From: Chitinophaga pinensis
Lineage (GTDB): Bacteria > Bacteroidota > Bacteroidia > Chitinophagales > LD1
NCBI GenBank assembly: GCA_945867505.1
Contig: CAMBIM010000002.1
Span: 1 to 47,357, forward strand
Direction of reading: 5' to 3'
Length of the DNA: 47,357 nt
Below, in pieces: positions 24,319 through 40,631 of this stretch; positions within the stretch are counted from its first letter, which is position 1, and the number at the start of each line of letters is the position of its first letter. The position numbers were made by a program, and so were the translations under genes. The notes under the pieces are model-generated. The model had not been told where the DNA came from. It worked only from the letters and a program-made list of their open reading frames with translations, and did no database searches.

Positions 24319-24338
24319 AATAGGCAGGCGTACTCAAT
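24319..24338. promoter_or_regulatory. Island dyad site (AATAGGCA-GGCG-TACTCAAT)
   Basis: Matches AATGAGYA-N4-TACTCATT. The centre is 30.5 bp from the first T of the minus-strand box TTTTTTTG (24291..24298). Confidence 0.6.
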
Positions 24339-24617
24339 TTTAGGGCAACTAGGGGTGCGCTACACCACTTGCCAATTTAACTCTAACTGCTCCTACAGGC
24401 GCAGCTTAATAGCTGGCGGCTTTTGCGGTTAGCCTGCTGATGATTTTTTAGCAGTTATGCCGTTGTTGGTGTTTTAGCATCGGTACCGCGATGCGTCACC
24501 AACAACTATTATTCCCAAGTCTGAACTTCCTTTCCAATTTAACACCAAACCTCTTTTTCACCCGTCCGCCCCCCCTACCTCAATTTCCTACTTCACAACC
24601 TCCTCCAACTTTTTCTC

Positions 24618-24785
24618 TTCTAAAAACTTCGTAAACACAACCACATTCGAAGTTTGTAGTTCTAAAAACTTCAAAAGCAGAACCACATTCGAAGTTTGTT
24701 GTTCTAAAAACTTCAAAAGCAGAACCAAGTTCAGCTTTTTTGGTTCCAAAAACATTGTACATGGAACCATGTACAATGTTTTTAG
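24618..24785. repeat. Four tandem 42-bp units, each an internal hairpin
   Basis: Units start at 24618, 24660, 24702 and 24744. A/B/C share ttctaaaaacttc...; B and C are identical over the first 26 nt. Unit D is a perfect 17-bp palindrome aaaaacattgtacatgg-aa-ccatgtacaatgttttt. Confidence 0.85.
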
Positions 24786-25200
24786 TACGCTTTGCGTAAA
24801 AGCCTGGTTTTAAGCAGCCAAAAATGCGGTCAGCCGCGCTTGCCTTTGTTTTTTAGCTGCTCCTGCTGCAAGCCTATAATGTCATTTTTGGCTGCCAGCA
24901 GTTCTTCATACAGCTCCTGATGCTTGGCATCCAGCAACTTGGGCGGTCTGGTTTTGGGCGGGGTGGTCTGTTTACAAAACCGCTGCGGGCTTTCCGCTCT
25001 ACCCCTCGCGTAAACAAAAGAACCCTGCGCTTATTAGGGTCTACCCTTTACTTGCCTCAGGGTCGTCTGCGACAGACCGGGGAAGAAAAACCAACAGCCG
25101 GGTAATATTACACGGCTGTTGTAGTTTGTTGGGGCATGGTTTATTTAAAGTTTGAATGGCGTGCATCTGCCATGCCTGGCCACAGGCAACGAAACCCTGA

Positions 25201-25220
25201 AATGAGTATATATACCTATT
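25201..25220. promoter_or_regulatory. Island dyad site (AATGAGTA-TATA-TACCTATT)
   Basis: Matches the consensus. It lies 105-124 bp upstream of the ATG of the kinase at 25325. Confidence 0.6.
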
Positions 25221-25324
25221 GCAGCCGCAGTGGGTTTTATAGTAATTGCACAAGTTCTAGATAGAGCAACAAGAAGCGGGCGGTTGATATTTTAAGTGAC
25301 TGTTTATTATCTATAATTCAATAC

Positions 25325-27319
25325 ATGAAAAACAACCGTTCAGCACTTAAAGAGCAAATAAAAAAGAACGGGATAAATGTTGATACACAAGCCCTGCAAA
25401 AGGCTATTGAGCTACAAGAAAGCAACGCGATGTACCGTTCGTTACTGGATCGAACATCTGATTTAATTACCAAGCTTGACGGTATGGGTAATATGCTTTT
25501 TGCCAACCGCACCTGGTTAAACAAAATGGAATACACCTTAGATGAGGTAATACTAACCCCCATTTTTAATTACATACACCCCCGCTGTATGGAGCACTGC
25601 ACTACTTTTTTTGGCTCATTACAGCAAACCGAAAACGATATACCTATTGCCTATTCCCTCATTAGCAAAAGCGGTAAAGAAGTACAAATTGAGGGCAGGG
25701 TTAATGTAACGTTTAAAAACGACCAGCTATACAAGATTGATACGCATTTTAGAGATGTAACACAAATAAACAGTCTTCAAAAAGCAGAAGAAAGCTCTGG
25801 AAAGCTTATAAATATTTTTAAAGAGGCTATTAATGCTTCGTCAATTGTATCGGTAACCGACCATAAAGGCATAATAAACTATGTAAACGAAAACTTCTGC
25901 CACATATCGGGTTATACGGCCAATGAGTTACTGAACCAAAGCCATGCCTTGGTTAACTCCGGCTACCACGACAAGCAATTTTTTAAAGACTTATGGAAAA
26001 CCATCAGCAGCGGCAAAACCTGGAAGGGCATTCTCAGGAACAAAGCTAAAAACGGAAATTTTTACTGGGTAGATTCTACCATTGTACCTTTTCCTACCCA
26101 AGATAATAACTACGAGTATGTTTCTATAAGGCACGATATTACAAAAGAGTATGAGGCTGAAAAAAATCTAATGAATCAGAAGAATTTTTACGAAAATATT
26201 CTTCATAATATTCCTCTTGATATTGCCGTGTTTGATAAAAACCATAAGTATGCTTTTATAAATAAGGAGGCTATTGCTGATAATACGCTGAGAGAGTGGA
26301 TGGTAGGGAAAGATGATTTTGATTATGCCGCTTTAAAAGGCCTGCCTGCCTCTTTTGCGCAACAAAGACGAGATGCGTTTAATCAGGTGCTTAATTCGGG
26401 CAAGGATTTAGTATGGCTGGATAAACAGATAGCCAAAACCGGAGAAGCGAAATACAAAGAAAGGCGTATGCACGCTTTTGCCGATAAACAAACAGTGGTA
26501 GGGTATGCGGTGGATATTACCGAACTTCATTCTACCCAACTTAATTTAGCGAAAAGCCGGGAAGATTTAATAGAAAATAATAAAAACTTAGAGCTTGAAA
26601 TTGAAAAAAGGGTCAGAGAACTAAAAGATTCGAATGCCGGCCTTGAAAGTTTTGCTTACTCTATCTCTCACGATCTAAAAGCACCGGTAAGGCAAATAAG
26701 CTCGTTTACCGGGCTATTGAAAAGGGCAGTTATAAAAGATGACAAGGAAGGGGCGCAGGAACACTTTACGTATATCGAGAGTTCGGTTGCTGTGCTAAAC
26801 GAACGTATTAACGCCATGCTGGCGGTGGCAAAATACGGCAGACAAGAGCTATCTGTTTCTGAATTTTCACTAAGAGAGGAGTTTGACAAAGCATTTAATC
26901 TGTATATCAATAACTACCCCCAAATTCATTACACCTTTGCAAATAACATTACATCTTCCGTAACAGCCGATAAATCTTTAATGGGTGCAGTAGTTGAAAA
27001 CTTGGTATCCAACGCCATTAAGTATTCAATACCAAAGAAAGACATATATGTAGAATTAGGTGAAATGGAAAAAGAAGGAGAAACGGTTTACTATGTACGC
27101 GATAATGGAGTGGGCTTTGACATGAAATATTACGATAAGATATATGCCCTGTTTCAACGTCTTCATCAGCAGTCGGAGGTAGAAGGAATGGGGATTGGCC
27201 TAGCGCACGTTAAACGGATAATAGAAAGGCATAATGGCCGTATATGGGCCGAAAGTGAATTAGGCAAGGGGACTACCTTCTATTTTACAATTAACCTGCG
27301 GGAAATAAGAAAAAAATAG
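25325..27319 (+). CDS. Soluble triple-PAS sensor histidine kinase (HK1)
   Basis: Three PAS modules, a coiled-coil linker, H-box FAYSISHDLKAPVRQI, and the N/G1/G2 boxes of HATPase_c (NAIKYS, DNGVGFD, GMGIGL). No TM segment. Confidence 0.9.
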   Translation: MKNNRSALKEQIKKNGINVDTQALQKAIELQESNAMYRSLLDRTSDLITKLDGMGNMLFANRTWLNKMEYTLDEVILTPIFNYIHPRCMEHCTTFFGSLQQTENDIPIAYSLISKSGKEVQIEGRVNVTFKNDQLYKIDTHFRDVTQINSLQKAEESSGKLINIFKEAINASSIVSVTDHKGIINYVNENFCHISGYTANELLNQSHALVNSGYHDKQFFKDLWKTISSGKTWKGILRNKAKNGNFYWVDSTIVPFPTQDNNYEYVSIRHDITKEYEAEKNLMNQKNFYENILHNIPLDIAVFDKNHKYAFINKEAIADNTLREWMVGKDDFDYAALKGLPASFAQQRRDAFNQVLNSGKDLVWLDKQIAKTGEAKYKERRMHAFADKQTVVGYAVDITELHSTQLNLAKSREDLIENNKNLELEIEKRVRELKDSNAGLESFAYSISHDLKAPVRQISSFTGLLKRAVIKDDKEGAQEHFTYIESSVAVLNERINAMLAVAKYGRQELSVSEFSLREEFDKAFNLYINNYPQIHYTFANNITSSVTADKSLMGAVVENLVSNAIKYSIPKKDIYVELGEMEKEGETVYYVRDNGVGFDMKYYDKIYALFQRLHQQSEVEGMGIGLAHVKRIIERHNGRIWAESELGKGTTFYFTINLREIRKK

Positions 27320-27616
27320 GTCGCTCCATCTCTGGAGCTACTCTGCAGAATAACACCCATGTTGCTCAAAACAAGAACACGAAAAAGCAACAATATTTTA
27401 TAGTAAGGAATTGGAAGATGTGCTCATTATTTAGTTTGCAAAGACCCCGTTTATCAGTTTACAGCAAATGGCGGGTAGTGCTTACCGGTAAATAGTAGTG
27501 GCCAGGTAGAAGCAGATATTAAAAAGCAATATCAGCAGTAAAAGTATAATAAAGTCATAGTCGCTTTGTTTCATGGCTTAGCGAGGGGTTTAAATTCAAA
27601 TATGAGGTGGCAGCTT

Positions 27617-27835
27617 TCAGCGTTTGCTCAATTCTTCCTGCTCCTTTTTTTGATGGTAACTGTTACCCAGCATTTTTATAAGGCAGATAAACGATACCAG
27701 CAGCGAAAGCATGGTAGCTTTGCTTACCTGCACGGTTGGCTGAAAGCCGGTAAGCTGGTTAAACATTAAACCAAAGGTGAAAGCTGCGGTAGTAATAAGC
27801 GCAATGTAGTTTCTGAAGGTTTCTTTTGAGTTCAT
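27617..27835 (-). CDS. Possible 72-aa two-TM membrane protein
   Basis: ATG at 27835 in the context CAACTATGAA (the listed start 27856 is GTG). Two hydrophobic helices. Dyad site 27911..27930 lies upstream. Confidence 0.4.
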   Translation of the reverse strand: MNSKETFRNYIALITTAAFTFGLMFNQLTGFQPTVQVSKATMLSLLVSFICLIKMLGNSYHQKKEQEELSKR

Positions 27836-27910
27836 AGTTGTGTATTTACCGGTCACCTTATTTTTTAAGCAGGCTAATTACTTTCGTGTACGTAAAAAAA
27901 CTGCCCGGGT

Positions 27911-27930
27911 AATGAGCACCGGTACTCAAA
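27911..27930. promoter_or_regulatory. Island dyad site (AATGAGCA-CCGG-TACTCAAA)
   Basis: Matches the consensus. It lies in the spacer between the small membrane ORF and the end of the DUF1573 operon. No clean TAnnTTTG box at the standard spacing. Confidence 0.5.
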
Positions 27931-28243
27931 ATGCAGGTTTATTTTAAGTCCACTTAATGCGTAATCTGTATGGTAAACTTGGGCGAGCTTTTAATGTTGC
28001 AACTAAATGGTTTGCCATCCTTATTTAGTATTTCTACATGGCCCGTAAAGTAGGTTATTAGCACATTACCTCATTGATAAACCGCAGCTACCATATTGCG
28101 GGTGGCTATTACCTGCATCAGTTTATTTGTGGTTGCCCATAATTCTACCCAACGGGGGAGTGTAGGTAATAATTGCCTTGATTTTGCAATCTGGCTACAA
28201 TACCCTTCCAATTTCAGCTTTTTAAATGCTTATAAGTGGTAGA

Positions 28244-28756
28244 TTAATCCCCTAAACCGTCAAAACCGCGATGGGATTCAACGCCATTTAGCTTTATGAT
28301 GTTTGCTTTAACAGTTAAAACAGTTGTTCTGGGGCTCGTATTGGCAGTTATGGTTACCAGCTTACTTTGCTCTCCACTTTTCCCATTCGGGTCAAAAGCC
28401 ACTTCAATAGAACCGGTTTTACCGGGGGCAATACTTTGTTTGGGCCAGGTTGGCACGGTGCAACCACAGCTACCTTCGGCACTTATAATCACCAGTGGTT
28501 CTTTACCTGTATTGGTAAACTCAAACTGCGTGTATACTTTCTGGTTATCCGGTATGCTGCCGAAATCGTGCGCCTGCTTTTTAAAAAACACGGCTGTTAC
28601 AGGCAGGTCGGGCATGCTCTTAAAATGAGCTTGCTCGGCATTGCCATATGGCTGCGCGTAGTTATTGCTGCTGTTAAATAATCGATAAAACTCTATGCCC
28701 GTAATAATTAACAGGCATAGAGTAATTGTCCATAGTGGTATTAATACAGGTTTCAA
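28244..28756 (-). CDS. DUF1573 domain protein (membrane-anchored, Ig-like fold)
   Basis: HDFGSIPDNQKVYTQFEFTNTGKEPLVIISAEGSCGCTVP.W.K..IAPGKTG.I.V.FD is the DUF1573 signature. N-terminal TM anchor. TTG start in the ORF track. Confidence 0.8.
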   Translation of the reverse strand: MKPVLIPLWTITLCLLIITGIEFYRLFNSSNNYAQPYGNAEQAHFKSMPDLPVTAVFFKKQAHDFGSIPDNQKVYTQFEFTNTGKEPLVIISAEGSCGCTVPTWPKQSIAPGKTGSIEVAFDPNGKSGEQSKLVTITANTSPRTTVLTVKANIIKLNGVESHRGFDGLGD

Positions 28757-28776
28757 AGTTGGATTCTTAAAAGGGC

Positions 28777-29124
28777 TTAAAAATTAGCCCGGTAAATTAT
28801 ATCGCCTCCGCAGTCAAGCCGTGCTTCTTCGCAGGTAGCATAACAATAGTTGGAACTTGTACAGGCATAAGGGGAGCTGTAAGGGCAGCATCCTCCAGGC
28901 ACTGGAGCACCGAGGGCTGGGTTACACGAAGGATTTGTACCAGTCCATTGTTGCACATTGCAGTTGCCTCCGTTTGTACCATAGCAGCTGAAATTGCAGG
29001 TGCCGTCATCCTTGCCGGCACTTGGGTCGTAGTTGCAGGCATATTTATCGGTGCAACCTTCTTTTTTGCACGAGTTTATGGTTAGGGTAAAAAGAGCAAG
29101 AGCGAGTAATAGATATTTAGCCAT
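28777..29124 (-). CDS. Cys-rich lipoprotein (115 aa, 17 Cys)
   Basis: The ATG at 29124 gives MAKYLLLALALFTLTINSC (lipobox), followed by GCTDKYACNYDPSAGKDDGTC and further Cys clusters. The start overlaps the stop of the upstream gene by 8 nt. Confidence 0.6.
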   Translation of the reverse strand: MAKYLLLALALFTLTINSCKKEGCTDKYACNYDPSAGKDDGTCNFSCYGTNGGNCNVQQWTGTNPSCNPALGAPVPGGCCPYSSPYACTSSNYCYATCEEARLDCGGDIIYRANF

Positions 29125-29581
29125 ATGTTTTAGTATTTGAACTGGTTTGATTATAACTATTGTCATTTCCGGTATTACCCAGTATTATACCACTTGTTCC
29201 CGAATTATTATTAGAAGATGTTCCGGATGTTGAGGTGGTGTTGCTGTTACCGGTAGAGGAACTGCCACCCGCAGCAATGCCCCATTGCGGTTCTTTGTTC
29301 ACCAACTCAGGGCAACAATATGGCTGCCCCATGGTCTTAATGTTCCTTTTGCACTGCGTAATCATGGCATCTACCTTTCTTACATCTTCCTGCTTTACAC
29401 AGTATTTGGCAGAGCAGAAGTATAGGGAAAGCATGGCACATTGCGAGCAGCCTTGCGCATCCTGTGTTTCGGTTAGGTGTTTGTATTTAGCCATGTCGGC
29501 ATCTTTTGCTTCAGTGCATTGGGCCTGCAGTAAAGCAGACAGGCACAAGAACATAAGGCAAAATAAGTAACGTGTTTTCAT
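29117..29581 (-). CDS. Secreted Cys-rich protein with an S/T/N-rich tail
   Basis: Signal peptide MKTRYLFCLMFLCLSALLQAQ, a ~90-aa domain with 8 Cys, then GGSSSTGNSNTTSTSGTSSNNNSGTSG... low-complexity tail. Confidence 0.6.
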   Translation of the reverse strand: MKTRYLFCLMFLCLSALLQAQCTEAKDADMAKYKHLTETQDAQGCSQCAMLSLYFCSAKYCVKQEDVRKVDAMITQCKRNIKTMGQPYCCPELVNKEPQWGIAAGGSSSTGNSNTTSTSGTSSNNNSGTSGIILGNTGNDNSYNQTSSNTKTYG

Positions 29582-29599
29582 AGTATATTTTAGCGGATA

Positions 29600-30709: not shown

Positions 30710-30791
30710 TATGCTTTTAATTATCGCTGGCTTAAACTTGTTTAATTGAAAGGTAAATCTGGTGTAAAGCTATACCACAACTGGCAGTAAA

Positions 30792-30811
30792 AATAGGTAG
30801 AGCTACTCATT
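30792..30811. promoter_or_regulatory. Island dyad site (AATAGGTA-GAGC-TACTCATT)
   Basis: Lies 83-102 bp upstream of the ATG at 30709. The minus-strand box TAGCTTTA (30765..30772) has its first T 29.5 bp from the dyad centre. Confidence 0.6.
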
Positions 30812-30902
30812 TTGTGTAGCTAAAAAAGCAGCGTTGCAAATAATTATGCAGCATACAGCTATCTAAAAAATTTATTGCCCGGTCTTTGTTTTAGGTCCAC
30901 GT

Positions 30903-30942
30903 AATGAGTAGATGTACCTAAATATGAGTACATGTACTCACC
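30903..30942. promoter_or_regulatory. Two abutting island dyad sites (AATGAGTA-GATG-TACCTAAA and TATGAGTA-CATG-TACTCACC)
   Basis: The second site contains the perfect 14-bp palindrome GAGTACATGTACTC. Its centre is 30.5 bp from the first T of the plus-strand box TAACCTTG (30963..30970). Confidence 0.65.
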
Positions 30943-30962
30943 ACTAAAAGCCAAAACCATGT

Positions 30963-30970
30963 TAACCTTG
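30963..30970 (+). promoter_or_regulatory. Putative -7 box (TAACCTTG) of the HK2/response-regulator operon
   Basis: 7/8 match to the Bacteroidota TAnnTTTG, at the same spacing from a dyad as in the XRE/H-NOX module. The first ATG downstream is 31007. Confidence 0.45.
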
Positions 30971-31006
30971 CCTCTACAAAATAGTTATAGAACTAATAGA
31001 CTAAAA

Positions 31007-32818
31007 ATGTATAAAGGTGATGTATTACTTAATTTGCCAGTTGCTCTGAATATTTCAGATGCTAATGGCGATTTTATATATTCAAACGAGCAAGTTTCTT
31101 CATTAACCGGCTATAGTCCAGATGAGTTAATGGGCAAGCATTGGAGCGTGCTTTATAGCGATCAAACATATAAAAGCCTTATCCCTAAGTTTGAAATATT
31201 TTTAGCGAACAAGAAATGGAGCGGTCAGGTTACCATACAGCGCAAAAACGGAACTTCTTTTCCGGCCTATGTATCTTTGTCGGTGTTACCAACCGGCTTA
31301 TTCTCGTGTGTATTCAATAATATAGAGGAACAGATAAGCCAGCAGAAATATCTCAACGATTTGAGCCAGGCGGTTGCCTCTACTATGGATGGTATTGCAT
31401 TGCTGGATGCAGAGGGTAAATATTATTATCTGAACCAAAAGCACATTACGCATTTTGGCTATACCCGCGAGGAAGAATTGTTGGGTAAAACATGGCAGGT
31501 TTTTTATCCTGACGATGAAGTAAAGCGTATAGAGGAGGACCTTTTCCCGAAACTGGCACGCGATGGAAGATGGCAGGGCGAAACCACCGGTGTTTGTAAG
31601 GATGGTACACCCATTTACCAGGAAATTACGCTTACCGGTTTGCCGCATGGCGGATTGATATGCATTATGCGAAATATTACGGAGAAAAAACTTCGCGAAA
31701 ATGAAATAAAAAAATTAGCGCTGGTAGCCAGGAATACCAATAATGCGGTAGTTATTACCAATGCCCTGCAACAAATTGAGTGGATGAACGAGAAGGCTGA
31801 AATTATCTTCGAACGCCCGTATCATGATATTACGAGTTCTACTTTGTTTGATGTGTTGGAGGAAATGCAGCTAGACAAGGAAGCAATTAAAACACTAAGG
31901 CAGAATATTGATAAAGGTGTTGCGGGTAAATTAGAAATTCATTTGCAGAAATGGCATGGAGAGGAGGTATGGCTCAGTTTAAGTATAACCCCCGTTTACG
32001 AAAAAGCTGGAGTAGTGAATTACGTGTGCTTGTTTTGGGATGTTACTGATTCTAAAGTGGCGGAAAGTAAATTAATCACAGCTCTGAACAAGGAGAAAAG
32101 CCTGAACGAACTGAAAACTCATTTTGTTAATCTCACCTCTCATGAGTTCAGAACGCCCCTTGCCAGTGTTCAATCAAGCCTTGATATTCTTAAGCTTTTA
32201 TATGAGCGGGATGCAGTGCTGAGCAAAGATAAGCTCGGTAAACATTTGGAACAGATGGAGTTTGAGGTAGATAGAATGAAGGAACTGATGGATAATGTTT
32301 TGGTTTTAGGTAAAATAAATTCAGGAAAAATAGATTATTGCCCAAAAGCTTGCGAGGTTGTTGATTTATTGAAACAGGTTACACACAGCAGCCGAGTTAA
32401 GGATTTTGGTAAATCTGTTACGCTCAAAATTAATGGCCCGGAAGGCGAAGTTTTTTGTGATAGGCGCCTTTTAGAGCATATACTTTATAATCTATTAATA
32501 AATGCGTTAAAGTATTCACAAGACTCTGATAAAGACCCCGTTGTTGAATTAAACTTTAATAATCATTCATTACTCATCAGCATAACCGATTATGGAATTG
32601 GTATTCCATTAGAAGATCAGTCACAAATTTTTGAATCTTTTTACAGAGCAAACAATACACAGAATATAGCAGGAACTGGCCTTGGTTTACCCATAGTTAA
32701 GCAGTTTGTCGAATTACATGGAGGAACCATTTGGTTCGAAAGTATACCCGGAAATAAAACTACATTTAGTTTTGAAATACCCATCGCATATGAAGAAGAT
32801 ACTAGTGGTAGAGGATGA
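31007..32818 (+). CDS. Soluble multi-PAS sensor histidine kinase (HK2)
   Basis: Three PAS modules, H-box LTSHEFRTPLASV, and HATPase_c boxes (NALKYS, DYGIGIP, GTGLGL). The listed start 30932 lies inside the dyad operator and upstream of the predicted -7 box, so Met26 (31007) is preferred. 30932 remains possible. Confidence 0.85.
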   Translation: MYKGDVLLNLPVALNISDANGDFIYSNEQVSSLTGYSPDELMGKHWSVLYSDQTYKSLIPKFEIFLANKKWSGQVTIQRKNGTSFPAYVSLSVLPTGLFSCVFNNIEEQISQQKYLNDLSQAVASTMDGIALLDAEGKYYYLNQKHITHFGYTREEELLGKTWQVFYPDDEVKRIEEDLFPKLARDGRWQGETTGVCKDGTPIYQEITLTGLPHGGLICIMRNITEKKLRENEIKKLALVARNTNNAVVITNALQQIEWMNEKAEIIFERPYHDITSSTLFDVLEEMQLDKEAIKTLRQNIDKGVAGKLEIHLQKWHGEEVWLSLSITPVYEKAGVVNYVCLFWDVTDSKVAESKLITALNKEKSLNELKTHFVNLTSHEFRTPLASVQSSLDILKLLYERDAVLSKDKLGKHLEQMEFEVDRMKELMDNVLVLGKINSGKIDYCPKACEVVDLLKQVTHSSRVKDFGKSVTLKINGPEGEVFCDRRLLEHILYNLLINALKYSQDSDKDPVVELNFNNHSLLISITDYGIGIPLEDQSQIFESFYRANNTQNIAGTGLGLPIVKQFVELHGGTIWFESIPGNKTTFSFEIPIAYEEDTSGRG

Positions 32819-33455
32819 GAAAAACATCCGTAGGAATTTAATGGATATTCTGGAGATGTCGGGCTATTCCGTAAGCACGGCAGAAAATGGTAGTGACGCT
32901 ATACTAATGATGCAGGAAAACCTGCCGGATTTAGTTATCAGCGATATACGAATGCCGCTAATGGATGGGAAACAACTGCTGATACATATGCGTAAGGAAA
33001 TGCCTCTACGCAATGTTCCTTTTTTGTTTTTAACCTCTAAAATTGAACCGGAGGATATCCGCGAAGGCATGAACCACGGAGCGGATGATTATATAACTAA
33101 GCCTTTTAAATATGATGTGTTATTAAAAGCCATAGAAACTAGGCTGAAAAAGCACGGATCTTTAATTTCAGACACATTAAAAAATCATAATCTTAACTTA
33201 ACCAAGAAGCAATCGGAAAAAATCGCGGAATTGACCCTTTACTTAAACAAACTATCCAAAAGCGAACTGCGGGTGTTAAAAGAAGTAGCTAAGAATTTAA
33301 ACTCAGACCAAATTGCCGGGCAACTGTATTTAAGTGGTAAAACCGTACAAAACCACAGACACAATATGGCTAAAAAACTAAGATTCAACGGTCAAAACAG
33401 TTTATTTGAATTTTCCATTACCTGTCAATACTATGGGCTCTTAAATAAAACGTAG
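32790..33455 (+). CDS. Response regulator, REC + LuxR/GerE-type HTH (NarL/FixJ family)
   Basis: MKKILVVEDE...LVISDIRMP...LTSK...ITKPF receiver, and C-terminal LSKSELRVLKEVAKNLNSDQIAGQLYLSGKTVQNHRHNMAKKL. The start overlaps the HK2 3' end by 29 nt in another frame. Confidence 0.9.
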   Translation: MKKILVVEDEKNIRRNLMDILEMSGYSVSTAENGSDAILMMQENLPDLVISDIRMPLMDGKQLLIHMRKEMPLRNVPFLFLTSKIEPEDIREGMNHGADDYITKPFKYDVLLKAIETRLKKHGSLISDTLKNHNLNLTKKQSEKIAELTLYLNKLSKSELRVLKEVAKNLNSDQIAGQLYLSGKTVQNHRHNMAKKLRFNGQNSLFEFSITCQYYGLLNKT

Positions 33456-33467: not shown

Positions 33468-33857
33468 TCAGGCATTTACTGTTAGCACAACCTCGGTAGC
33501 GTTCATACTCGGATTTATATCTCCGCTCATCATTTGTCTAATTATTCCCTTGTAAGTAGCTATTTTTTTACGAAGCTCTAATACTTCTACCACCACATTT
33601 ACCTGGTTATTTAGTCTGAATTCATTAACCGTTTCCGCATTGATAGGTATTTGCGGAGATATTATTAGTGCAGCGTCAATGCCTAATGCCTCACTCACTT
33701 TGTATAGTGTGCTGGTATGAATGTCCTCGGAGTTCTCAATCTGGCTATAGGATTGTTGCGTTACTTCTAGCATGCGCGCAACTGCCGCTTGTTTAACACC
33801 AATTATATTGCGAATAGATTTAATTCTATTGGCTACACTGTATTTTGTTTGGTTCAT
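33468..33857 (-). CDS. XRE-family HTH transcriptional regulator
   Basis: IKSIRNIIGVKQAAVARMLEVTQQSYSQIENSEDIHTSTLYKVSEALGI (Cro/C1-type HTH) plus a ~60-aa C-terminal extension. Confidence 0.85.
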   Translation of the reverse strand: MNQTKYSVANRIKSIRNIIGVKQAAVARMLEVTQQSYSQIENSEDIHTSTLYKVSEALGIDAALIISPQIPINAETVNEFRLNNQVNVVVEVLELRKKIATYKGIIRQMMSGDINPSMNATEVVLTVNA

Positions 33858-33872
33858 AGTTTACTTTTGCTG

Positions 33873-33880
33873 CAAATTTA
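33873..33880 (-). promoter_or_regulatory. -7 box TAAATTTG of the XRE gene
   Basis: Exact TAnnTTTG, with 15 nt between the box and the ATG. First T is 30.5 bp from the dyad centre. Confidence 0.55.
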
Positions 33881-33900
33881 CAGCACTCCCGCTGTATTAA

Positions 33901-33920
33901 AATGAGCAGGTTTACTCATT
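33901..33920. promoter_or_regulatory. Island dyad site (AATGAGCA-GGTT-TACTCATT)
   Basis: Best-type site, exactly equidistant from the divergent boxes at 33873..33880 (-) and 33941..33948 (+). Confidence 0.7.
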
Positions 33921-33940
33921 ATTCTAAAGATTTTGCCGGT

Positions 33941-33948
33941 TATCTTTG
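33941..33948 (+). promoter_or_regulatory. -7 box TATCTTTG reading toward the H-NOX operon
   Basis: Exact TAnnTTTG. First T is 30.5 bp from the dyad centre. Confidence 0.5.
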
Positions 33949-33975
33949 TAGCTCATGATCCTTTTTTTTAGTTAA

Positions 33976-34006
33976 GGAGTCGCTTAGTCAGGGCGACTCC
34001 TTTTTT
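33976..34006 (+). terminator. Intrinsic terminator in the leader upstream of the H-NOX gene
   Basis: ggagtcgc-ttagtcagg-gcgactcc followed by tttttt, plus-strand only. It lies ~30 nt after the predicted transcription start and 95 nt before the H-NOX ATG. Confidence 0.65.
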
Positions 34007-34100
34007 ATTGGGTCGAAGCTCATCCTACTACCAGCTTGTTATTCAAAGGTTAAATTAACTACACTTTATGTTACATTGCGTTTCATAAAGTTAAGCGTAT

Positions 34101-34640
34101 ATGTACGGAATAATAAATACGGCTGTGGAGCAGTTAATTGTAGAAAATTACGGAAACAACACATGGTTAGAAATTAAAAAAAAGGCAGGTGTTGCCGAAG
34201 AACAATTTGTCAATATGCAGCCCTACGATGATAAAATTACCTACGCTATGGTGGGGGCAGCTGCTGAGGTATTGAGACTTGAAGCAGCCGAGGTGCTGGA
34301 AAAGTTTGGCGAATACTGGATATTACACACTGCAAAAGAAGGGTATGGAAACCTTTTAGATATGGGAGGTAATAATCTGCCCGATTTTCTAAAAAATTTG
34401 AATACGCTGCACTTTAAAGTAGGATCATTAATGCCTAATTTGGTGCCTCCTTCATTTGAGGTTTTGGAACTTACTTCCAATAGCCTGTTGTTGGTTTATA
34501 CCACTAAGCGAATAGGCCTGGCACCCATGGTTGTCGGCTTAATAAAGGGGCTCGGAATTCGCTTTAATACACCTTGTAATGTTCTCTATTTAAGCGATTC
34601 TTCAAAGGAGTTTAGCCATCACTTTAAAGTATCCTGGTAA
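34101..34640 (+). CDS. hnoX: H-NOX haem NO/O2-binding sensor protein
   Basis: MYGIINTAVEQLIVENYG start, proximal His104 (NTLHFKV), Y133-x-T-x-R137 haem-propionate motif, 179 aa. The stop overlaps the ATG of the kinase by 1 nt (TAATG). Confidence 0.9.
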   Translation: MYGIINTAVEQLIVENYGNNTWLEIKKKAGVAEEQFVNMQPYDDKITYAMVGAAAEVLRLEAAEVLEKFGEYWILHTAKEGYGNLLDMGGNNLPDFLKNLNTLHFKVGSLMPNLVPPSFEVLELTSNSLLLVYTTKRIGLAPMVVGLIKGLGIRFNTPCNVLYLSDSSKEFSHHFKVSW

Positions 34641-36559
34641 TGATTGAGGTAAAGCTTTCCAACGAAAACCTACAGGCATTATTCCCTTTTCATTTTATGG
34701 TTAGTGGTAATTTGGAGATACTTTCAACCGGTAGAAGTATTTCCAAATTGTCAAATATGATTAGCCCCGGTAAACTCTTATCCGATTATTTCAAAATAAC
34801 TTATAACGGTAACAAATTGTCAAATGCTGAGATATTCAGCGACAATAACGCATTTGTATTGGAAGAAAACATAAATGCTTTTCGCCTTAATGCGCAATGC
34901 GTAAAGGTTTCTGAATCCGTATTTTTAATAGTTTGTCTTCCGTTGGTTGACCATACCTTTAATCAGCAGAAATTTAATCTTACGCTTTCTGATTTTGCAC
35001 AATACGATAATACGGTTAATCAACTTTTTTTGGCGCAGGTAACAAAGAAAACTTTAGACGATGCTACTTCTATAAATGAAAAATTAGTTTTAAAGAATAG
35101 GGAGTTACAGAAAACTAAGGAGCGGTTTGAATTGGTGGTTAACTCTGTACACGATATCATTTTTCAGACGGATGGTCATGGATTATGGACATTCTTAAAT
35201 AAGGCATGGGAAGATATCATGGAGTTCTCACTTGAGGAGTCGATAGGCAGTATGTTTTTCTCTTATTTACATCCGGATGACGTACAGCGTAATCAAGAAC
35301 TATTTCTGCCTCTTATTAACCGCGAAAAGGCATACTGCGCGCACCAGATTAGATATGTAGCAAAAAGCGGAAAAGTAAAGTGCATGAAAGTTTTTGCCAT
35401 TCTAACTTTTGATGAAGCCGGAAACGTAAACGGAACTACCGGAACTTTGCAGGACATAACTATGCAAAAAGAGAATGCTGAAAAATATGAACTTTTAGCG
35501 AACAATGTGAGCGATGTTGTTTGTATATACGATATGCTTGGCAGTTACGTTTATGTGTCGCCTTCAGTAAAGTTTTTAATCGGTTTTAGTGCTGAAGAAT
35601 TAATGGGAAAACATGTTTTAGATTTTTTGGATACTAAAGAGTTTAATTCCTTTGAGCAACTTAAAGCCGCAATGCTGGATAGCAAAAGTCATAACAAAGT
35701 TTTAGAACATCATATCAGAACCAAAGACGGTAAGTGGCGGATTATTGAAACCTCATCCCGTATAATTTTTGATGAAAATTCGCGACCGGTTAATTTTATT
35801 TCAAGCTCAAGATTGATAGAGAAAAGAAAGAGGGCAGAAAATGCAATTATTAATGCACTCAAAGATGCCCAGGATGTAAGCAATCTTAAATCTAAGTTTA
35901 TATCGCTTGTTTCACATGAAATGAAGACTCCGATGACTTCAATTTATAGCGGTGTTGAAATTATGGAGATGAAGGCTCAGCGTAGCAATCAAATTGATCA
36001 AACATTTTTCAGGCAGTTTGACATAATAAAAAGTGAGGTAGGGCGCCTGAATGAACTGGTAGAAAAAATATTATTTTGGGGGAAAGTGGAGAGTGGTAAA
36101 ATTAGTACTGCCAAAGAGGTTATAAATGTTGTAGACTTATTGCAAAATGTTTGTGCAGAGCATAACCGAATACAAGCTGACGGAAGAAAAATTGCAATGC
36201 GTATTAAAGGAAATCCCGTTTTGATTTTGATAGACCCTATGCATTTAAGGCATATTCTTGGAAATCTCATGTCAAACGCTTTTAAGTATTCTTCAGGCAA
36301 AACCAATCCGGAGCTCAATATTGAATTTGCTAAGAAAAATTGGAAGATCACTGTAATTGATCAAGGTATAGGAATTCCGGAATCGGAAGTTGTTCATCTT
36401 TTTCAATCCTTTTTTAGAGCTTCGAACGTTGAACATATACACGGTAATGGATTAGGTATGGTGGTGGTAAAACATTTTGTAGAAATGAATGACGGATTAT
36501 TGAAGGTGGATAGTAAGGAGAATGCCGGAACTAAAATATCTATTGCTTTTCCTTATTAA
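34640..36559 (+). CDS. H-NOX-associated sensor histidine kinase (HNOBA-like N-terminus + 2 PAS + HisKA/HATPase_c) (HK3)
   Basis: N-terminal LQALFPFHFMVSGNLEILSTG resembles the FPFH motif of the H-NOX-associated domain. It also has two PAS modules, H-box LVSHEMKTPMTSI, and the NAFKYS, DQGIGIP, GNGLGM boxes. Confidence 0.9.
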   Translation: MIEVKLSNENLQALFPFHFMVSGNLEILSTGRSISKLSNMISPGKLLSDYFKITYNGNKLSNAEIFSDNNAFVLEENINAFRLNAQCVKVSESVFLIVCLPLVDHTFNQQKFNLTLSDFAQYDNTVNQLFLAQVTKKTLDDATSINEKLVLKNRELQKTKERFELVVNSVHDIIFQTDGHGLWTFLNKAWEDIMEFSLEESIGSMFFSYLHPDDVQRNQELFLPLINREKAYCAHQIRYVAKSGKVKCMKVFAILTFDEAGNVNGTTGTLQDITMQKENAEKYELLANNVSDVVCIYDMLGSYVYVSPSVKFLIGFSAEELMGKHVLDFLDTKEFNSFEQLKAAMLDSKSHNKVLEHHIRTKDGKWRIIETSSRIIFDENSRPVNFISSSRLIEKRKRAENAIINALKDAQDVSNLKSKFISLVSHEMKTPMTSIYSGVEIMEMKAQRSNQIDQTFFRQFDIIKSEVGRLNELVEKILFWGKVESGKISTAKEVINVVDLLQNVCAEHNRIQADGRKIAMRIKGNPVLILIDPMHLRHILGNLMSNAFKYSSGKTNPELNIEFAKKNWKITVIDQGIGIPESEVVHLFQSFFRASNVEHIHGNGLGMVVVKHFVEMNDGLLKVDSKENAGTKISIAFPY

Positions 36560-36574
36560 TCAAAAATAGCGTAA

Positions 36575-36961
36575 TCATCCCTTAGCCAACAAGCGTTTTA
36601 TACAATTATGTAGTTGGTCGAACTTAAATGGCTTGGTAATGTAATCTGCCGCTCCTGAATTTAAGCCGCTACTTATATCATTCGGTTCAGATTTAGCCGT
36701 TAAAAATACAAACGGAATTGAACTTAGGGAGGGCGTTTTTTTTATAGTTTCAAGTAAAACATGCCCGTGCGCACCAGGCATAACCATATCGCAAATAATT
36801 ATATCGGGTAAAAAATTACTTAAGCAACTAATTGCGTCTTCCACAGACGAAGCTTCTTGAACAATGAAGTTATGCATGGCAAGTAGCATAGAAATGTTTT
36901 CACGAATGTTTTTTTCGTCTTCTACTAAAAGAATTTTTGCTTCTTTTTGCTTGTGTTTCAT
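36575..36961 (-). CDS. Stand-alone receiver (CheY-like) response regulator
   Basis: ILLVEDEKNIRENI...IICDMVMPG...LTAK...ITKPF. Close paralogue of the receiver of the LuxR-type regulator. No output domain. Confidence 0.9.
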   Translation of the reverse strand: MKHKQKEAKILLVEDEKNIRENISMLLAMHNFIVQEASSVEDAISCLSNFLPDIIICDMVMPGAHGHVLLETIKKTPSLSSIPFVFLTAKSEPNDISSGLNSGAADYITKPFKFDQLHNCIKRLLAKG

Positions 36962-37024
36962 AGCTGTTTGCTGTAAAGCAAGCCAAATATGAAACTAAAA
37001 TTGGTTCATAGTCTACTTTTGCTA

Positions 37025-37032
37025 CAAAATTA
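37025..37032 (-). promoter_or_regulatory. -7 box TAATTTTG reading toward the receiver-only regulator
   Basis: Exact TAnnTTTG. First T is 30.5 bp from the centre of dyad 37053..37072. Confidence 0.5.
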
Positions 37033-37052
37033 CAGCACTCCTGCTGTAATAA

Positions 37053-37072
37053 AATGAGCAGAGCTACTCATT
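37053..37072. promoter_or_regulatory. Island dyad site (AATGAGCA-GAGC-TACTCATT)
   Basis: Both half-sites are identical to those of 33901..33920. Confidence 0.7.
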
Positions 37073-37092
37073 ATTCTGAAAATTTTGACGGT

Positions 37093-37100
37093 TATCTTTG
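37093..37100 (+). promoter_or_regulatory. -7 box TATCTTTG of the orphan short transcript
   Basis: Identical to the box in copy 1 and at the same spacing. Confidence 0.45.
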
Positions 37101-37128
37101 TAACTCATGATCATAGTTTTTTAGTCTA

Positions 37129-37159
37129 GGAGTCGCTTAGGAAGGGCGGCTCCTTTTTT
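37129..37159 (+). terminator. Intrinsic terminator of module copy 2
   Basis: ggagtcgc-ttaggaagg-gcggctcc + tttttt. The only stem change relative to copy 1 turns U-A into U-G, so pairing is kept. Confidence 0.6.
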
Positions 37160-37271
37160 ATGCTCTGCAATTCCAAACTTGAATAAAAGTTTAGCGTATA
37201 TGTTGATCCCCCAATGTAGTAACCTTAATACAAATCCTTACTGTACGAAATAAGGAAGGCTCTATGCACTT

Positions 37272-37448
37272 TTAATGGTTGAGTATATCATATAGGTAGG
37301 GATGCCATTGCAAATTAGTGCTATTTCTGCTTGCCGCAACACGTGGCTTCTTATACCCGCATTTTAGAATAAAGTAGATGCATCCGGTGAGCATTATAAG
37401 CAGTACCAGCCATTGGAAGAATCTTTGGGGCTCATATTTAGGGTTCAT
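37272..37448 (-). CDS. Possible 58-aa single-TM peptide
   Basis: ATG in the context TACTATGAA. One hydrophobic helix (FQWLVLLIMLTGCIYFIL). No other support. Confidence 0.25.
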   Translation of the reverse strand: MNPKYEPQRFFQWLVLLIMLTGCIYFILKCGYKKPRVAASRNSTNLQWHPYLYDILNH

Positions 37449-37589
37449 AGTAGGGTGTTTTGTTTACTGCAACAAAAAAAAACTCAAATTCTTATTTGAG
37501 AATCATAGTAATTTTTTTCCTATAAACCATAAGAGCTGAAAGAAAAGTATTGTATACGGATAGTGCATCAGTTTATATCCTTTACAACC

Positions 37590-39428
37590 CTATAAAGTGC
37601 CACTTCTCATCTTTTTTTCAAGAGCTTCCGATTTTGCAATCGCTTCCGGAATTCTGAAGGCCAATTGTTTAATAATTCCATTGCCCATGCTTTCATTTGC
37701 CTTTCTTTTCATACCTATGAAGAATGTACAGCCTTTATTCGGCTGGCTCTCCGCCCAAATTTCAAGCCCATGGGCCGTAACTATATTTTTAACAATTGAC
37801 AAACCCAAACCCGTTCCTTCAAATTCATCCTCTCGGTGCATTCTGCGAAAAGGTTTAAATAAATCAGTAGCAGTTTTCGAATCAAATCCGGCACCGTTAT
37901 CGTGTATAAAATATAAACTTTCACCCTGTTCGTTTCTGGTCATTCCTATACTCACCACTGGGTTTTCTACCTTCGAAGAATACTTAACGGCATTGGAAAT
38001 AAGGTTAACCCAAACCTGAGCACACATACCTTCATCCCCAATGCAGTCATCTAAATGCTCCAGATTAAATTGGGTAGCAACTGCATTACTGTCTTGCTGA
38101 ATTTCTTTTATGATATTTCTAATCAGTTCATTTAGGTTCACGCGTTTTTTTTCTAATTCCTTTTTGCTTATGTGTGCCAGCTTAAGCAAATCGGTAATTA
38201 TGTTGTTCATTTTCGATGCCTTGCTTTTCACTACCCCCAGCATCTCTTTAACATCAGGGTTGACATTCTCTGGTAAATATTTTTCTATAAGTGAGGCGTA
38301 ACCAATCATAGTATGCAAAGGCGAACGCAGATCGTGCGTCACAGCATAAACAAATCCTTCTAAATTATCGTTTGCCTTTTCAAGTTTTTCTGTTCTTTCT
38401 TTTACTATTCCCTCTAATTCTGAATTTATATATTCTATTCTGCTTTGCACCCCCATAAGCTCCGTAATATCGCGGGCAATGCACATATACTTCAAGGTCT
38501 CTCCTTGTTCAGTTATAAAAGGAACTATAGTGCTGTCTACCCAATAATGAGAGCCATCCTTGGCTCTGTTTTTTACTATAGCATTCCATGTTCTACCGGC
38601 TTTAATAGTATCCCACATGCCTGTAAAAAACTGTCTGGTGTGATATCCGGAATCAATCAGTTTATGTGTTTTGCCAATAATCTCCTGCTCTTCATATTTT
38701 GATGTTTCGCAAAATATTTTGTTCACGTGCGTAATTATACCCTCACTATCTGTTACGCTTATTATAGTGGTTAAGTCTAACCCCTTTTTATAACCATCTA
38801 ATTCAACATGTTGTTTTTGCTGAATTTCCATTTTCTCTTTCAGCATAGTGTTTAGCAAACTCAAACTTTTAGCCTTTTCTTTTAATTTTCTCTCATTAAT
38901 TCTCAGTTCGGTTATGTCTTGTCCATAGCCCAGTACGTGCTTAACATTACCGGTTGTGTCAAACACCGGCATAAATGTTCTGTGTATTATTACTGGTAAA
39001 CCATTTACCTCCCTCTCGTCTTCCCAAACAAATGGCTCTTTGGTTTGCAGTGCCACTTTAAATTTAGAGTGCCTGTCATCCGCAAGTATTTTATCTATAT
39101 TTTTATAAGTGCAGTAATCGTAGTCTGTTTTATTCATAACGAAATTGCGAACATTTTCATCCCTTATTGCTGCTGGATTAATGAATTTGTAGGTATGCGC
39201 AGTGTCAAATACAACCAGGTCATTGGGCAGGTGGTTTAGAATTGACTCATAAAACTCAACCTTTTGTTTGAGTTCATCAATCTCACATAGCTTATTATTT
39301 TTTGCACTGCTGTCTGAAAATCCTGAAACAAGTTTCAGGATTACTTTTTTGGGATTTAACAACATAGGCCATGTTTTGAGTAAATATACGTCAGACAGAT
39401 ACGCTTGGCAATAGGTACTCGTACTCAT
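37590..39428 (-). CDS. Soluble double-PAS sensor histidine kinase (HK4), paralogue of HK1
   Basis: The PAS modules are clearly homologous to PAS3 and PAS2 of HK1, in swapped order. H-box VYAVTHDLRSPLHTM, and HATPase_c boxes NAVKYS, DNGAGFD, GTGLGL. Confidence 0.9.
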   Translation of the reverse strand: MSTSTYCQAYLSDVYLLKTWPMLLNPKKVILKLVSGFSDSSAKNNKLCEIDELKQKVEFYESILNHLPNDLVVFDTAHTYKFINPAAIRDENVRNFVMNKTDYDYCTYKNIDKILADDRHSKFKVALQTKEPFVWEDEREVNGLPVIIHRTFMPVFDTTGNVKHVLGYGQDITELRINERKLKEKAKSLSLLNTMLKEKMEIQQKQHVELDGYKKGLDLTTIISVTDSEGIITHVNKIFCETSKYEEQEIIGKTHKLIDSGYHTRQFFTGMWDTIKAGRTWNAIVKNRAKDGSHYWVDSTIVPFITEQGETLKYMCIARDITELMGVQSRIEYINSELEGIVKERTEKLEKANDNLEGFVYAVTHDLRSPLHTMIGYASLIEKYLPENVNPDVKEMLGVVKSKASKMNNIITDLLKLAHISKKELEKKRVNLNELIRNIIKEIQQDSNAVATQFNLEHLDDCIGDEGMCAQVWVNLISNAVKYSSKVENPVVSIGMTRNEQGESLYFIHDNGAGFDSKTATDLFKPFRRMHREDEFEGTGLGLSIVKNIVTAHGLEIWAESQPNKGCTFFIGMKRKANESMGNGIIKQLAFRIPEAIAKSEALEKKMRSGTL

Positions 39429-39459
39429 AATTAACTGTCACTACCTATCATAAGCAAGC

Positions 39460-40011
39460 TTATGAATAGTAAGGCGAAATCATTAAGTAAACAATTACCC
39501 CTGTTACAGATACATATAACCACAGGGGGAAAGTATAACGTGCCCATTTCTTGTGTTTAGCGTATTCACCTGTTAAACTTCTGTAGGCCGTAAAAAGTAT
39601 GATGGGCAAAATAATAGCAGCCAGAATAATATGTGTGGTAAGTAGCACTAAATAGAACGTGCGGATACTGCCTTCGCCACCAAATTTAGTTTCACCGGCA
39701 AATAAGTGGTGCGCTATGTAAGAAACCAAAAACAAGCCCGAAAGCACAATAGCTGTAAGCATTATATTCTTATGCGCTTCATAATCCTTCTGTTTAACTA
39801 AAACAACAGCGGCAACCAATAAAACAGAAACGGTAGAATTGATAAGAGCATTAAACGTGGCAAAAATATGCGGGTTAAACGGCACCGTAACTCCGGTGCC
39901 TAAATGAATTTTAGGCAATGCAGCAACTACACAAAACACAACAGTAGACACTACCCCTATTATCCATTTAACGGTGCAGTCATTCTTTTCTAATAGCGGT
40001 TTGGGAAACAT
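39460..40011 (-). CDS. DUF420 (CtaM-like) four-TM membrane protein
   Basis: Four helices with conserved His residues (HKNIM, IAHH, TTHIILA, KHKKWARYTFPLWLYVSVTG), as in DUF420 proteins linked to haem-copper oxidase function. It lies 31 nt upstream of HK4. Confidence 0.75.
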   Translation of the reverse strand: MFPKPLLEKNDCTVKWIIGVVSTVVFCVVAALPKIHLGTGVTVPFNPHIFATFNALINSTVSVLLVAAVVLVKQKDYEAHKNIMLTAIVLSGLFLVSYIAHHLFAGETKFGGEGSIRTFYLVLLTTHIILAAIILPIILFTAYRSLTGEYAKHKKWARYTFPLWLYVSVTGVIVYLMISPYYS

Positions 40012-40173
40012 TCGTGGACTTTAATTTAGGTTTCAAATAATTTTTTTAGAAGTCTCTTTTTTCTTGGTAAAACTGAAACTGTTTCGTTTAGCGCAATAGA
40101 AAAAAATTTCACCCATCAGTTTATTTACAGTCAGGTTATATACCCCGCACTAATAGTTGCGCAGGTTTCCGTC

Positions 40174-40551
40174 TTATTCCAAACTATTACTAAAATCTGA
40201 AGCCGCAATTAAAGAATCTGGGTCCAGCTGCGTAATCCATTTTATTTTAGGGTTAATAGAGTAATAAATACATTTCCCTGCTCTTCTGGCCTGCACAACG
40301 TCAGATTCTTTCAAAATCAATAAATGCTGTGAGCACTTAGCCTGTTCAATTTTTAGTTTTTTGTAAATTTCAGTCACCCTTACTTCTCCCATTAGTGACA
40401 GTACATTAATTATCGAAACCCTCGTTGAATTTTGAATGGCACTGGCTACTGTTTTTAGCTTGTTTATTTTATCGAAATCGAAAAGCAACTCGTTTCCTTT
40501 AAAATCCTTCACCAGTAATCTATTTCTTACAACCTTAGGGGTATACTTCAT
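40174..40551 (-). CDS. ArsR/SmtB-like winged-helix transcriptional regulator
   Basis: NSTRVSIINVLSLMGEVRVTEIYKKLKIEQAKCSQHLLILKESDVVQARRAGKCIYYSIN. The start is moved to the ATG at 40551, because the listed 40620 start runs into the dyad site. Confidence 0.75.
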   Translation of the reverse strand: MKYTPKVVRNRLLVKDFKGNELLFDFDKINKLKTVASAIQNSTRVSIINVLSLMGEVRVTEIYKKLKIEQAKCSQHLLILKESDVVQARRAGKCIYYSINPKIKWITQLDPDSLIAASDFSNSLE

Positions 40552-40611
40552 AATATTAGGTATATGCTTATATTTTAATAATGCGAATGTATGGTCTCGC
40601 TTCCTGAAAGA

Positions 40612-40631
40612 AATAGGCACACCTACTCATT
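40612..40631. promoter_or_regulatory. Island dyad site (AATAGGCA-CACC-TACTCATT)
   Basis: Lies 61-80 bp upstream of the ATG at 40551. The minus-strand box TACATTCG (40584..40591) has its first T 30.5 bp from the dyad centre. Confidence 0.6.

Follow-up and report, generated by a model that had tools for sequence, protein, structure and literature searches.

What acts at a 20-bp inverted repeat that recurs in the promoters of a sensor-gene island of Chitinophaga pinensis, and which of the DNA-binding proteins encoded in that island would bind it? The window analyzed here is a whole 47,357-bp contig (CAMBIM010000002.1) of a metagenome-assembled genome (MAG, GCA_945867505.1). Within it, an island of about 17 kb carries four soluble PAS histidine kinases recognized by Pfam, in the open reading frames (ORFs) 25325-27319, 30932-32818, 34640-36559 and 37590-39428. 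Three DNA-binding proteins are encoded among them: an ArsR protein, an XRE-type protein and a response regulator (RR) with a receiver and a GerE domain (REC-GerE, of NarL/FixJ type; 32790-33455, plus strand). The original prediction, made from the letters of the contig, described nine copies of the dyad, placed them near -42 of the promoters and preferred the LuxR/NarL-type RR as the binder, with the XRE protein as the alternative. The dyad is a real, conserved cis-regulatory element. On the sequence evidence presented below, it is most likely the operator of the NarL-type RR of the island.

The core of the dyad reads ATGAGTA-N4-TACTCAT, a 7-4-7 inverted repeat with A/T flanks that spans 20 bp overall. 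In the window, searching for the pattern AATGAGYA-N4-TACTCATT and allowing three mismatches at most yielded 19 strand-matches where 1.24 would be expected, and 19 was attained in 0 of 100 dinucleotide-preserving shuffles. With a symmetrised weight matrix, ten sites score between 20.4 and 26.0 bits and are set apart from all else in the window, where they are followed by an intergenic match at 27409 (15.8 bits) and one at 16102 (10.9 bits); in shuffled windows, the maximum score has its 95th percentile at 16.8 bits. It should be mentioned that the matrix is circular inside the window because it was trained on those same sites, and that the independent support comes from other loci. The count matrices show positions 2-8 and 13-19 to be conserved, with positions 9-12 nearly uninformative. 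All nine copies of the original prediction are found where it placed them and with the sequences it gave, and the matrix scan agrees with it that the remaining ~30 kb of the window holds no full site. Its count was incomplete, a strong site at 39410-39429 and a weak one at 27409-27428 having been overlooked. The triplet TAC at positions 13-15, taken to be invariant, is so only on the strand chosen for reading; the other half has G for A in five of the ten sites.

Two sites match the consensus with no mismatches. The first, AATGAGCAGGTTTACTCATT at 33901-33920, is common to the divergent promoters of the XRE gene and of the H-NOX operon. The second, AATGAGCAGAGCTACTCATT at 37053-37072, lies in a duplicate of the XRE/H-NOX control region and would serve a receiver-only gene on the minus strand and a short hairpin-terminated transcript on the plus strand. 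Both sit within a duplicated segment of ~200 bp, and they are therefore paralogous copies, not independent sites. Upstream of the operon of the second kinase and the RR (HK2-RR), two dyads stand in tandem at 30903-30922 (21.3 bits) and 30923-30942 (20.4 bits). This pair, 19-20 bp apart, is kept in the related loci L001 (6204/6224), L002 (2983/3003), L085 (8113/8133) and L087 (8103/8122), of which L085 is a contig 95% identical to the window and provided with independent gene calls. The dyad AATAGGTAGAGCTACTCATT (30792-30811, 24.6 bits) would drive the secreted Cys-rich/DUF1573 operon on the minus strand and is kept in L085 at 8002 and in L001 at 6335. Upstream of the string of ArsR, DUF420 and the fourth kinase (HK4) lies AATAGGCACACCTACTCATT (40612-40631, 24.1 bits; L085, 17828), and between DUF420 and HK4 lies the overlooked strong site AATAGGTACTCGTACTCATA (39410-39429, 20.6 bits; L001, 862; L085, 16624), which would be an internal HK4 promoter. 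The first kinase gene, HK1, is preceded by AATGAGTATATATACCTATT (25201-25220, 20.5 bits; L085, 170). The site AATGAGCACCGGTACTCAAA (27911-27930, 21.6 bits) is ~85 nt upstream of a minus-strand ORF for 72 residues with two transmembrane segments (ATG at ~27835), and its counterpart in L001, at 12783, has the same 85-nt distance to the orthologous small ORF. Finally, AATAGGCAGGCGTACTCAAT (24319-24338, 21.5 bits) faces a small ORF on the minus strand (start at ~24293), downstream of which there is a frameshifted BLUF gene.

The sites are intergenic or lie in ORF extensions that the original prediction had rejected, and the gene calls of L085 bear this out, starting HK2, HK4 and the ArsR gene downstream of the dyads. 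For HK2 the likely start is the ATG at 31007, not 30932, and the L085 call is 603 residues long. The weak dyad-like site AATTGGAAGATGTGCTCATT at 27409-27428 scores under the 16.8-bit shuffle maximum and lies 90 nt past the HK1 stop codon; an identical copy is present in L085 at 2378, and the status of this site is uncertain. The match at 16102-16121 (ATTAGGTAACAATGCCTATT), intergenic between the PhoX and metallophosphatase genes, falls short of the chance threshold and is unlikely to be a true site. A mobile-element or dispersed-repeat origin of the copies was rejected, in that beyond the one ~200-bp duplication only the 20-bp dyad is common to them and the sites are phased to promoters.

Promoters in Bacteroidota are of the -33/-7 type, and TAnnTTTG is their -7 box, for which the usual position is assumed here. 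When offsets of 5-44 nt past the dyad were inspected at nine loci, 14 of the 17 exact TAnnTTTG occurrences were found to start at offset 20, and boxes with one mismatch peak at offsets 20-21, so the spacing rule of the original prediction holds more strongly than it was stated. The dyad at 33901 has exact boxes 20 nt off on both sides, TATCTTTG at 33941-33948 (+) and TAAATTTG at 33873-33880 (-), and that at 37053 likewise has boxes at offset 20 on both sides (37093-37100, +; 37025-37032, -). Boxes with one mismatch follow the dyads at 30923 (TAACCTTG, 30963-30970, +, offset 20), 40612 (TACATTCG, 40584-40591, -, offset 20), 30792 (TAGCTTTA, 30765-30772, -, offset 19) and 39410 (TATATTTA, 39381-39388, -, offset 21). 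For 24319, the minus side has imperfect -7-like boxes, namely TTTTTTTG (offset 20) and TACTTTTT (offset 16). Taking the offset-20 box together with the usual position of the -7 box, the center of the dyad is predicted to lie near -41.5 from the transcription start. This agrees with the placement near -42 proposed for the window, and it is conserved in distant loci. For the tandem pair, the proximal dyad would be near -41.5 and the distal one near -61.5. No separate -33 TTG is visible at the usual spacing in the dyad promoters, and the promoters therefore look activator-dependent. The dyad center is typically 45-60 nt from the start codon for many targets, and a single dyad is common to divergent promoters in the window as well as in L001, L087 and L093.

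Loci with orthologs of the RR were fetched at 95, 89 (XRE identity), 62 (XRE identity), 57, 52, 52, 48, 46, 45, 44 and 43% identity, along with several more from a metagenome scan, and were searched with the matrix from the window alone at a threshold of >13 bits. In 187 kb from 13 other RR-ortholog loci (40-95% identity), 58 distinct sites were found. The controls gave two weak matches in 1.30 Mb from 80 unrelated loci, which had been retrieved via generic receiver-domain peptides, and no match in 0.45 Mb of loci carrying other LuxR-family genes. The site density of the RR-ortholog loci is thus ~270-fold higher than that of the combined 1.75 Mb of controls, which include ~585 kb of low-GC, mostly Bacteroidota-type sequence. 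Across the eight loci with gene calls, 44 of 45 matches are intergenic, compared with 13% intergenic DNA (binomial P ~1e-37). The genes downstream are recurrently those for PAS kinases, the HK-RR operon, XRE, the H-NOX operon, receiver-only proteins, and proteins that are secreted or carry the tail of the type IX secretion system (T9SS). One locus, L092, has its HK-RR pair amid rpsF/ribosomal-protein, katG, fur and secA genes, and its sole strong dyad in 20 kb (22.5 bits) precedes the HK gene by 50 nt and is followed at offset 20 by an exact TAACTTTG. Among the loci scanned, the dyad is confined to those with the REC-GerE family, and every motif-bearing locus contains an ortholog of the RR.

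It is noted that positions 4-5 of the half-site are coupled. Among 116 half-sites outside the window, GA is found 74 times, AG 25, GG 9 and AA 6, where independence would give ~58, ~9, ~25 and ~22, respectively. The half-site is therefore TGAGTA or TAGGTA, and seldom mixed.

The RR has clear Pfam matches to both of its domains (Response_reg, 1e-28; GerE, 3.1e-11), and its gene overlaps the end of HK2 by 29 nt. No variation is seen in 34 orthologs at the receiver residues E8, D9, D52, K104 and P105, and hardly any in the recognition helix KTVQNHRxNM, which parallels the constancy of the motif; full-length orthologs of the family extend down to ~40% identity. The profile of the C-terminal domain matches the structures of GerE, SsrB, DosR, FixJ, EvgA, VraR and NarL, with SsrB the second-best solved relative. 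Pairing of the RR with an HK in the same operon is seen in loci long enough to judge, except in L091 and L093, in which the RR adjoins H-NOX-linked kinase genes instead. The RR is the sole DNA-binding protein common to all motif-bearing loci, because ArsR is missing from most of them and XRE from four motif-bearing lineages. ArsR was rejected as the binder on the same ground, its absence from most motif-bearing loci. Orthologs of the XRE protein were located by tblastn in the window, L001, L002, L085, L087 (two copies), L089, L093 and L176, and were not detected in L091/L097, L092 and L094 (flanks of <=10 kb). In L175, a 15-residue XRE relic is left at 6625-6669 between the regulator and H-NOX genes, and the strong dyads are retained. 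All of these XRE-less loci (L091/L097, L092, L094 and L175) keep strong, phased dyads, which favors the RR over XRE as the candidate binder, as originally preferred.

Some observations on the relatives of the RR may be added. Beyond its own family, the nearest relatives of its receiver are mainly Bacteroidota fusions of a receiver, a cyclic nucleotide (cNMP)-binding domain and a Crp-type helix-turn-helix (HTH), and hybrid kinases with a receiver domain are found among them as well. A second RR family, with a receiver that begins ILIADDHPIF, has almost the same GerE recognition helix, SGKTVQNHRFS. A covariation between recognition helix and dyad spacer, in which the STVKNHR lineage (L087 and L175) favors CATG, was not used as evidence because the window and L001 have CATG spacers as well, and because the lineages lack independence.

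How does the dyad compare with operators of known regulators? The original prediction fitted the half-site to the NarL heptamer TACYYMT, which is exact in 11 of the 20 half-sites of the window; the rest differ at one position, with TGC for TAC or a change of the last base. NarL belongs to the same protein family as the RR, and the consensus half-sites TACTCAT and TACCTAT fit its heptamer. The arrangement, however, is different, as the NarL site is TACYYMT-NN-AKRRGTA, with TAC outward and a 2-bp spacer, and the dyad here is AKRRGTA-N4-TACYYMT, with TAC inward and a 4-bp spacer. No exact NarL 7-2-7 match exists in the window. The junction of the tandem dyads (30915-30930) reads TACCTAA-AT-ATGAGTA, which is near a NarL-type 7-2-7 site, so that the heptamers in tandem arrays alternate 4-bp and 2-bp spacers. 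The lux and tra boxes of LuxR and TraR are 18-20-bp dyads bound by a dimer with a GerE/LuxR_C-type HTH, centered near -42 with overlap of the -35 element, and one box may serve divergent promoters. Those regulators differ from the RR in having an acyl-homoserine-lactone-binding domain instead of a receiver, the box sequence differs, and their promoters are of the sigma-70 -35/-10 type. Considering the TAC-inward heptamers and the 4-bp spacer, the closest documented operator design is the 7-4-7 of SsrB and not the 7-2-7 of NarL. SsrB, the NarL-family RR of Salmonella pathogenicity island 2 (SPI-2), uses an 18-bp 7-4-7 palindrome that is present in two copies upstream of its own ssrAB operon (PMC2837388). 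The likeness comprises the REC-GerE architecture, inverted heptamers, a degenerate 4-bp spacer and two copies at the kinase-regulator operon itself, and in both cases one motif links an island of co-regulated promoters (PMC2837388). It is a resemblance of design and not of sequence homology, the heptamer sequences being unrelated and the phyla different. Moreover, SsrB sites have no strict promoter position and tolerate one degenerate half-site, whereas the dyad here keeps its phase to the -7 box within 1 bp, and the targets of SsrB are secretion-system genes rather than sensor kinases.

From these comparisons we propose that the dyad is an autoregulated, class-II-type activator operator of the RR, at the heart of a multi-sensor regulon. 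To this full mechanism, derived from sequence, we assign a probability of roughly 60%. Phosphorylation of the RR would come from at least one of the island's soluble histidine kinases, PAS or H-NOX-linked, and the phosphorylated dimer would bind the dyad. At ~41.5 bp upstream of the start and 20 nt upstream of TAnnTTTG, the dyad would take the place of the -33 element, and the RR bound there would recruit or stabilize sigma-A RNA polymerase in class II style. One dyad may serve two divergent promoters at once, and at the HK2-RR operon a second dyad one step upstream would reinforce the promoter of the RR's own operon. The putative targets are this operon, HK1, H-NOX/HK3, HK4, the receiver-only paralog, XRE and ArsR/DUF420, and further the secreted Cys-rich/DUF1573 operon, the small membrane ORFs and probably a BLUF gene. 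With the operon of the regulator and the other kinases as targets, the network would self-amplify by positive feedback and drive the output of secreted proteins.

Several observations weigh against this proposal. The link between the RR and the dyad is the co-inheritance of motif and protein, and the genome-scale distribution was judged from the window, flanks of <=10 kb and the control loci; "absent", when said of XRE, likewise means absent within such flanks. The dyads at 25201, 27911 and 30903 have no recognisable -7 box at the canonical offset, and L176 has both the RR and XRE but only degenerate dyads (5054-5073 and 2100-2119, with TATAGGCATTCATACTCAAA upstream of XRE). The second RR family has no dyad within 10 kb in six loci (L100, L102, L104, L105, L106 and L109). 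By their dimerization and histidine phosphotransfer (DHp) domains, the four kinases divide into two dissimilar classes, and they may therefore not all feed the RR. Repression would be just as compatible with a site over the -33 position. The gene of the XRE protein, for its part, stands beside the best sites and is found with that of the RR in most loci, and the recognition helix of the protein, TQQSYS.IE, is conserved across orthologs. The last two points lead to the alternatives that have to be weighed.

The alternative that fares best, which we still regard as improbable, is that the dyad is the operator of a repressor, with an unphosphorylated regulator that blocks polymerase at the -33 region and is released by phosphorylation. 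The dyad overlaps the place where sigma-A would read the -33 element, but its spacing to the -7 box is fixed within 1 bp. Such fixed spacing is typical of activators that touch polymerase, and repressor sites usually tolerate variable positions. The absence of a separate -33 TTG at the usual spacing, by which the promoters look activator-dependent, and the extra dyads one step upstream, which would be near -61.5 and not over the core promoter, also speak for activation. A precedent for repression is provided by HnoC of Shewanella oneidensis, an RR fed by an H-NOX-controlled kinase that binds palindromes at the promoters of its own network in a feedback loop (PMC8738867, PMC12471899, PMC9938897). 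All hno signalling genes are repressed by HnoC until phosphorylation releases it (PMC8738867, PMC12471899), and in the island, too, the targets are the signalling genes of the network itself. However, it is the -10 element and the transcription start that are overlapped by the palindromes of HnoC, and not the -35 region (PMC9938897). The site at -41.5 in the island suggests activation, and HnoC has a MerR-type DNA-binding domain rather than GerE.

A little less probable still is that a dimer of the XRE protein (HTH_3; 33468-33857, minus strand, itself a putative dyad target) binds the dyad, whether to activate from -42 in the manner of lambda cI or to repress its own gene, and that the RR acts elsewhere or via XRE. 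A spacing of one helical turn between half-sites is typical of the dyads that HTH_3 dimers bind. Besides the conserved helix mentioned above, the XRE gene is transcribed divergently from the consensus dyad at 33901, a phased dyad is present ~55 nt upstream of the start in every XRE ortholog, and all XRE homologs on contigs long enough to judge adjoin the RR. Against this stand the strong, correctly phased dyads in the loci where XRE was not found or is a relic, and the rarity of the protein, with only 8 homologs, all metagenomic, compared with dozens for the RR family. Two other repeats of the XRE promoter were considered. The palindrome GCTGyAAATTTrCAGC over its -7 box was dropped as an XRE operator, since its symmetry is not kept in the duplicate copy, L001 and L087, and a TACAGC-N6-GCTGTA repeat in the promoter spacer is found in close relatives only.

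The weakest alternative, to which we give very little credence, is a regulator encoded outside the loci, e.g. of CRP/FNR type, with an indirect linkage of the RR: the 5-4-5 core GAGTA-N4-TACTC has FNR-like geometry, -41.5 is the classic class II position of FNR and CRP, the scans covered loci and not whole genomes, and no dyad is near the genes of the related RR family that has the recognition helix in common, but the dyad is essentially absent from the control loci and from the 30 kb of the window beyond the island, the only strong dyad in the 20 kb of L092 sits at the HK-RR promoter, and none of the loci has a CRP/FNR gene. The operator of the REC-GerE RR thus remains our preferred identity for the dyad.

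The genes of the island itself can now be described. HK1 (25325-27319, +) is a PAS histidine kinase, and HK2 (31007-32818, +) is a soluble protein with three PAS domains followed by HisKA and HATPase. The H-NOX gene (34101-34640, +; Pfam HNOB, 2e-46), a putative target of the dyad, forms an operon (34101-36559) with HK3 (34640-36559, +), for which Pfam gives HNOBA-PAS-PAS, HisKA and HATPase. The receiver-only protein (36575-36961, -), also a putative target, is 49% identical to the receiver domain of the RR. HK4 (37590-39365, -, with a longer ORF that reaches 39428) is a further PAS histidine kinase, in the string with DUF420 that is headed by ArsR (40174-40551, -). The secreted-protein operon runs from 30709 down to 28244 on the minus strand; its proteins belong to no Pfam family and two are Cys-rich, with a DUF1573 gene at the operon end. 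T9SS sorting domains are found elsewhere in the window and, like the TAnnTTTG promoter boxes, point to Bacteroidota as the phylum of the organism. Two small membrane ORFs are conserved in the island, one of 72 residues with two hydrophobic segments and one of ~60 residues with one, and the small membrane ORFs are located at 27617-27856 (-) in the window, at 12877-13095 in L001 and at 2586-2897 and 14476-14661 in L085. The BLUF gene (23560-23974, -), of which a fragment is read at 23759-23974 (-), has a frameshift near 23795-23800, with the N-terminal 57 residues in one frame and the continuation KDLYAQIQKDPRHRNVEAL in the next. Either an assembly error has split this gene, which lies downstream of the 24319 dyad, or it is a pseudogene.

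The duplication of the control region relates 33858-34010 to 36962-37160, and the dyad, both -7 boxes, a hairpin and a relic of the XRE start have all been copied. The relic, ATGAACCAATTTTAG at 36995-37009 (-), is in the second copy, which now serves the receiver-only gene. The hairpin is GC-rich and followed by a U-run; it lies at 33974-34002 (+), ~25 nt past the predicted transcription start, with its second copy at 37128-37154 (+). The two hairpins are the top two terminator-like matches in the island and fold with -18.9 and -17.1 kcal/mol. The hairpin sequence GGAGTCGC...GCGRCTCC is kept in L001, L085 and L087, including the locus whose regulator has no more than 52% identity. In the leader of the H-NOX operon it might serve as an attenuator; alternatively, it might terminate a ~55-nt transcript. 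The hairpin has no Rfam match, the Rfam search of the island having given only a sub-threshold chance match.

The regulon appears to be undescribed, as the original prediction held: no paper in the literature searched describes the motif or an H-NOX two-component network of Bacteroidota, and a search for the motif string found only primers. A bolder picture, which we consider doubtful, is that of a self-amplifying sensory hub, widespread in uncultured Bacteroidota, in which one NarL-type RR, with a single operator that replaces the -33 element, would collect the signals of H-NOX (for NO/O2), of a BLUF sensor for blue light and of multiple PAS kinases. XRE might then be a brake on the same or an adjacent site, the receiver-only protein a phosphate sink, and the dyad would also drive a ~55-nt hairpin-terminated regulatory RNA. 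Should this hold, no H-NOX transcriptional regulon of Bacteroidota would have been defined earlier, and the island would offer a model of activator-dependent promoters for a phylum in which little is known of promoter logic.

What has been obtained here is a solid regulon of comparative genomics with unusually rigid promoter architecture in an under-studied phylum, and not a new principle. Transcriptional activation at the unusual -33/-7 promoters of Bacteroidota is little characterized, and more than 60 natural promoters in which the operator keeps a strict 20 nt from the -7 box downstream of it make a ready system for its study. The matrix can be used for annotating the regulon in MAGs. For the organism, the secreted Cys-rich/DUF1573 operon is the likely physiological output, and with the dyad, an H-NOX-containing multi-kinase network has a regulon open to testing, in a phylum for which the literature searched describes none.

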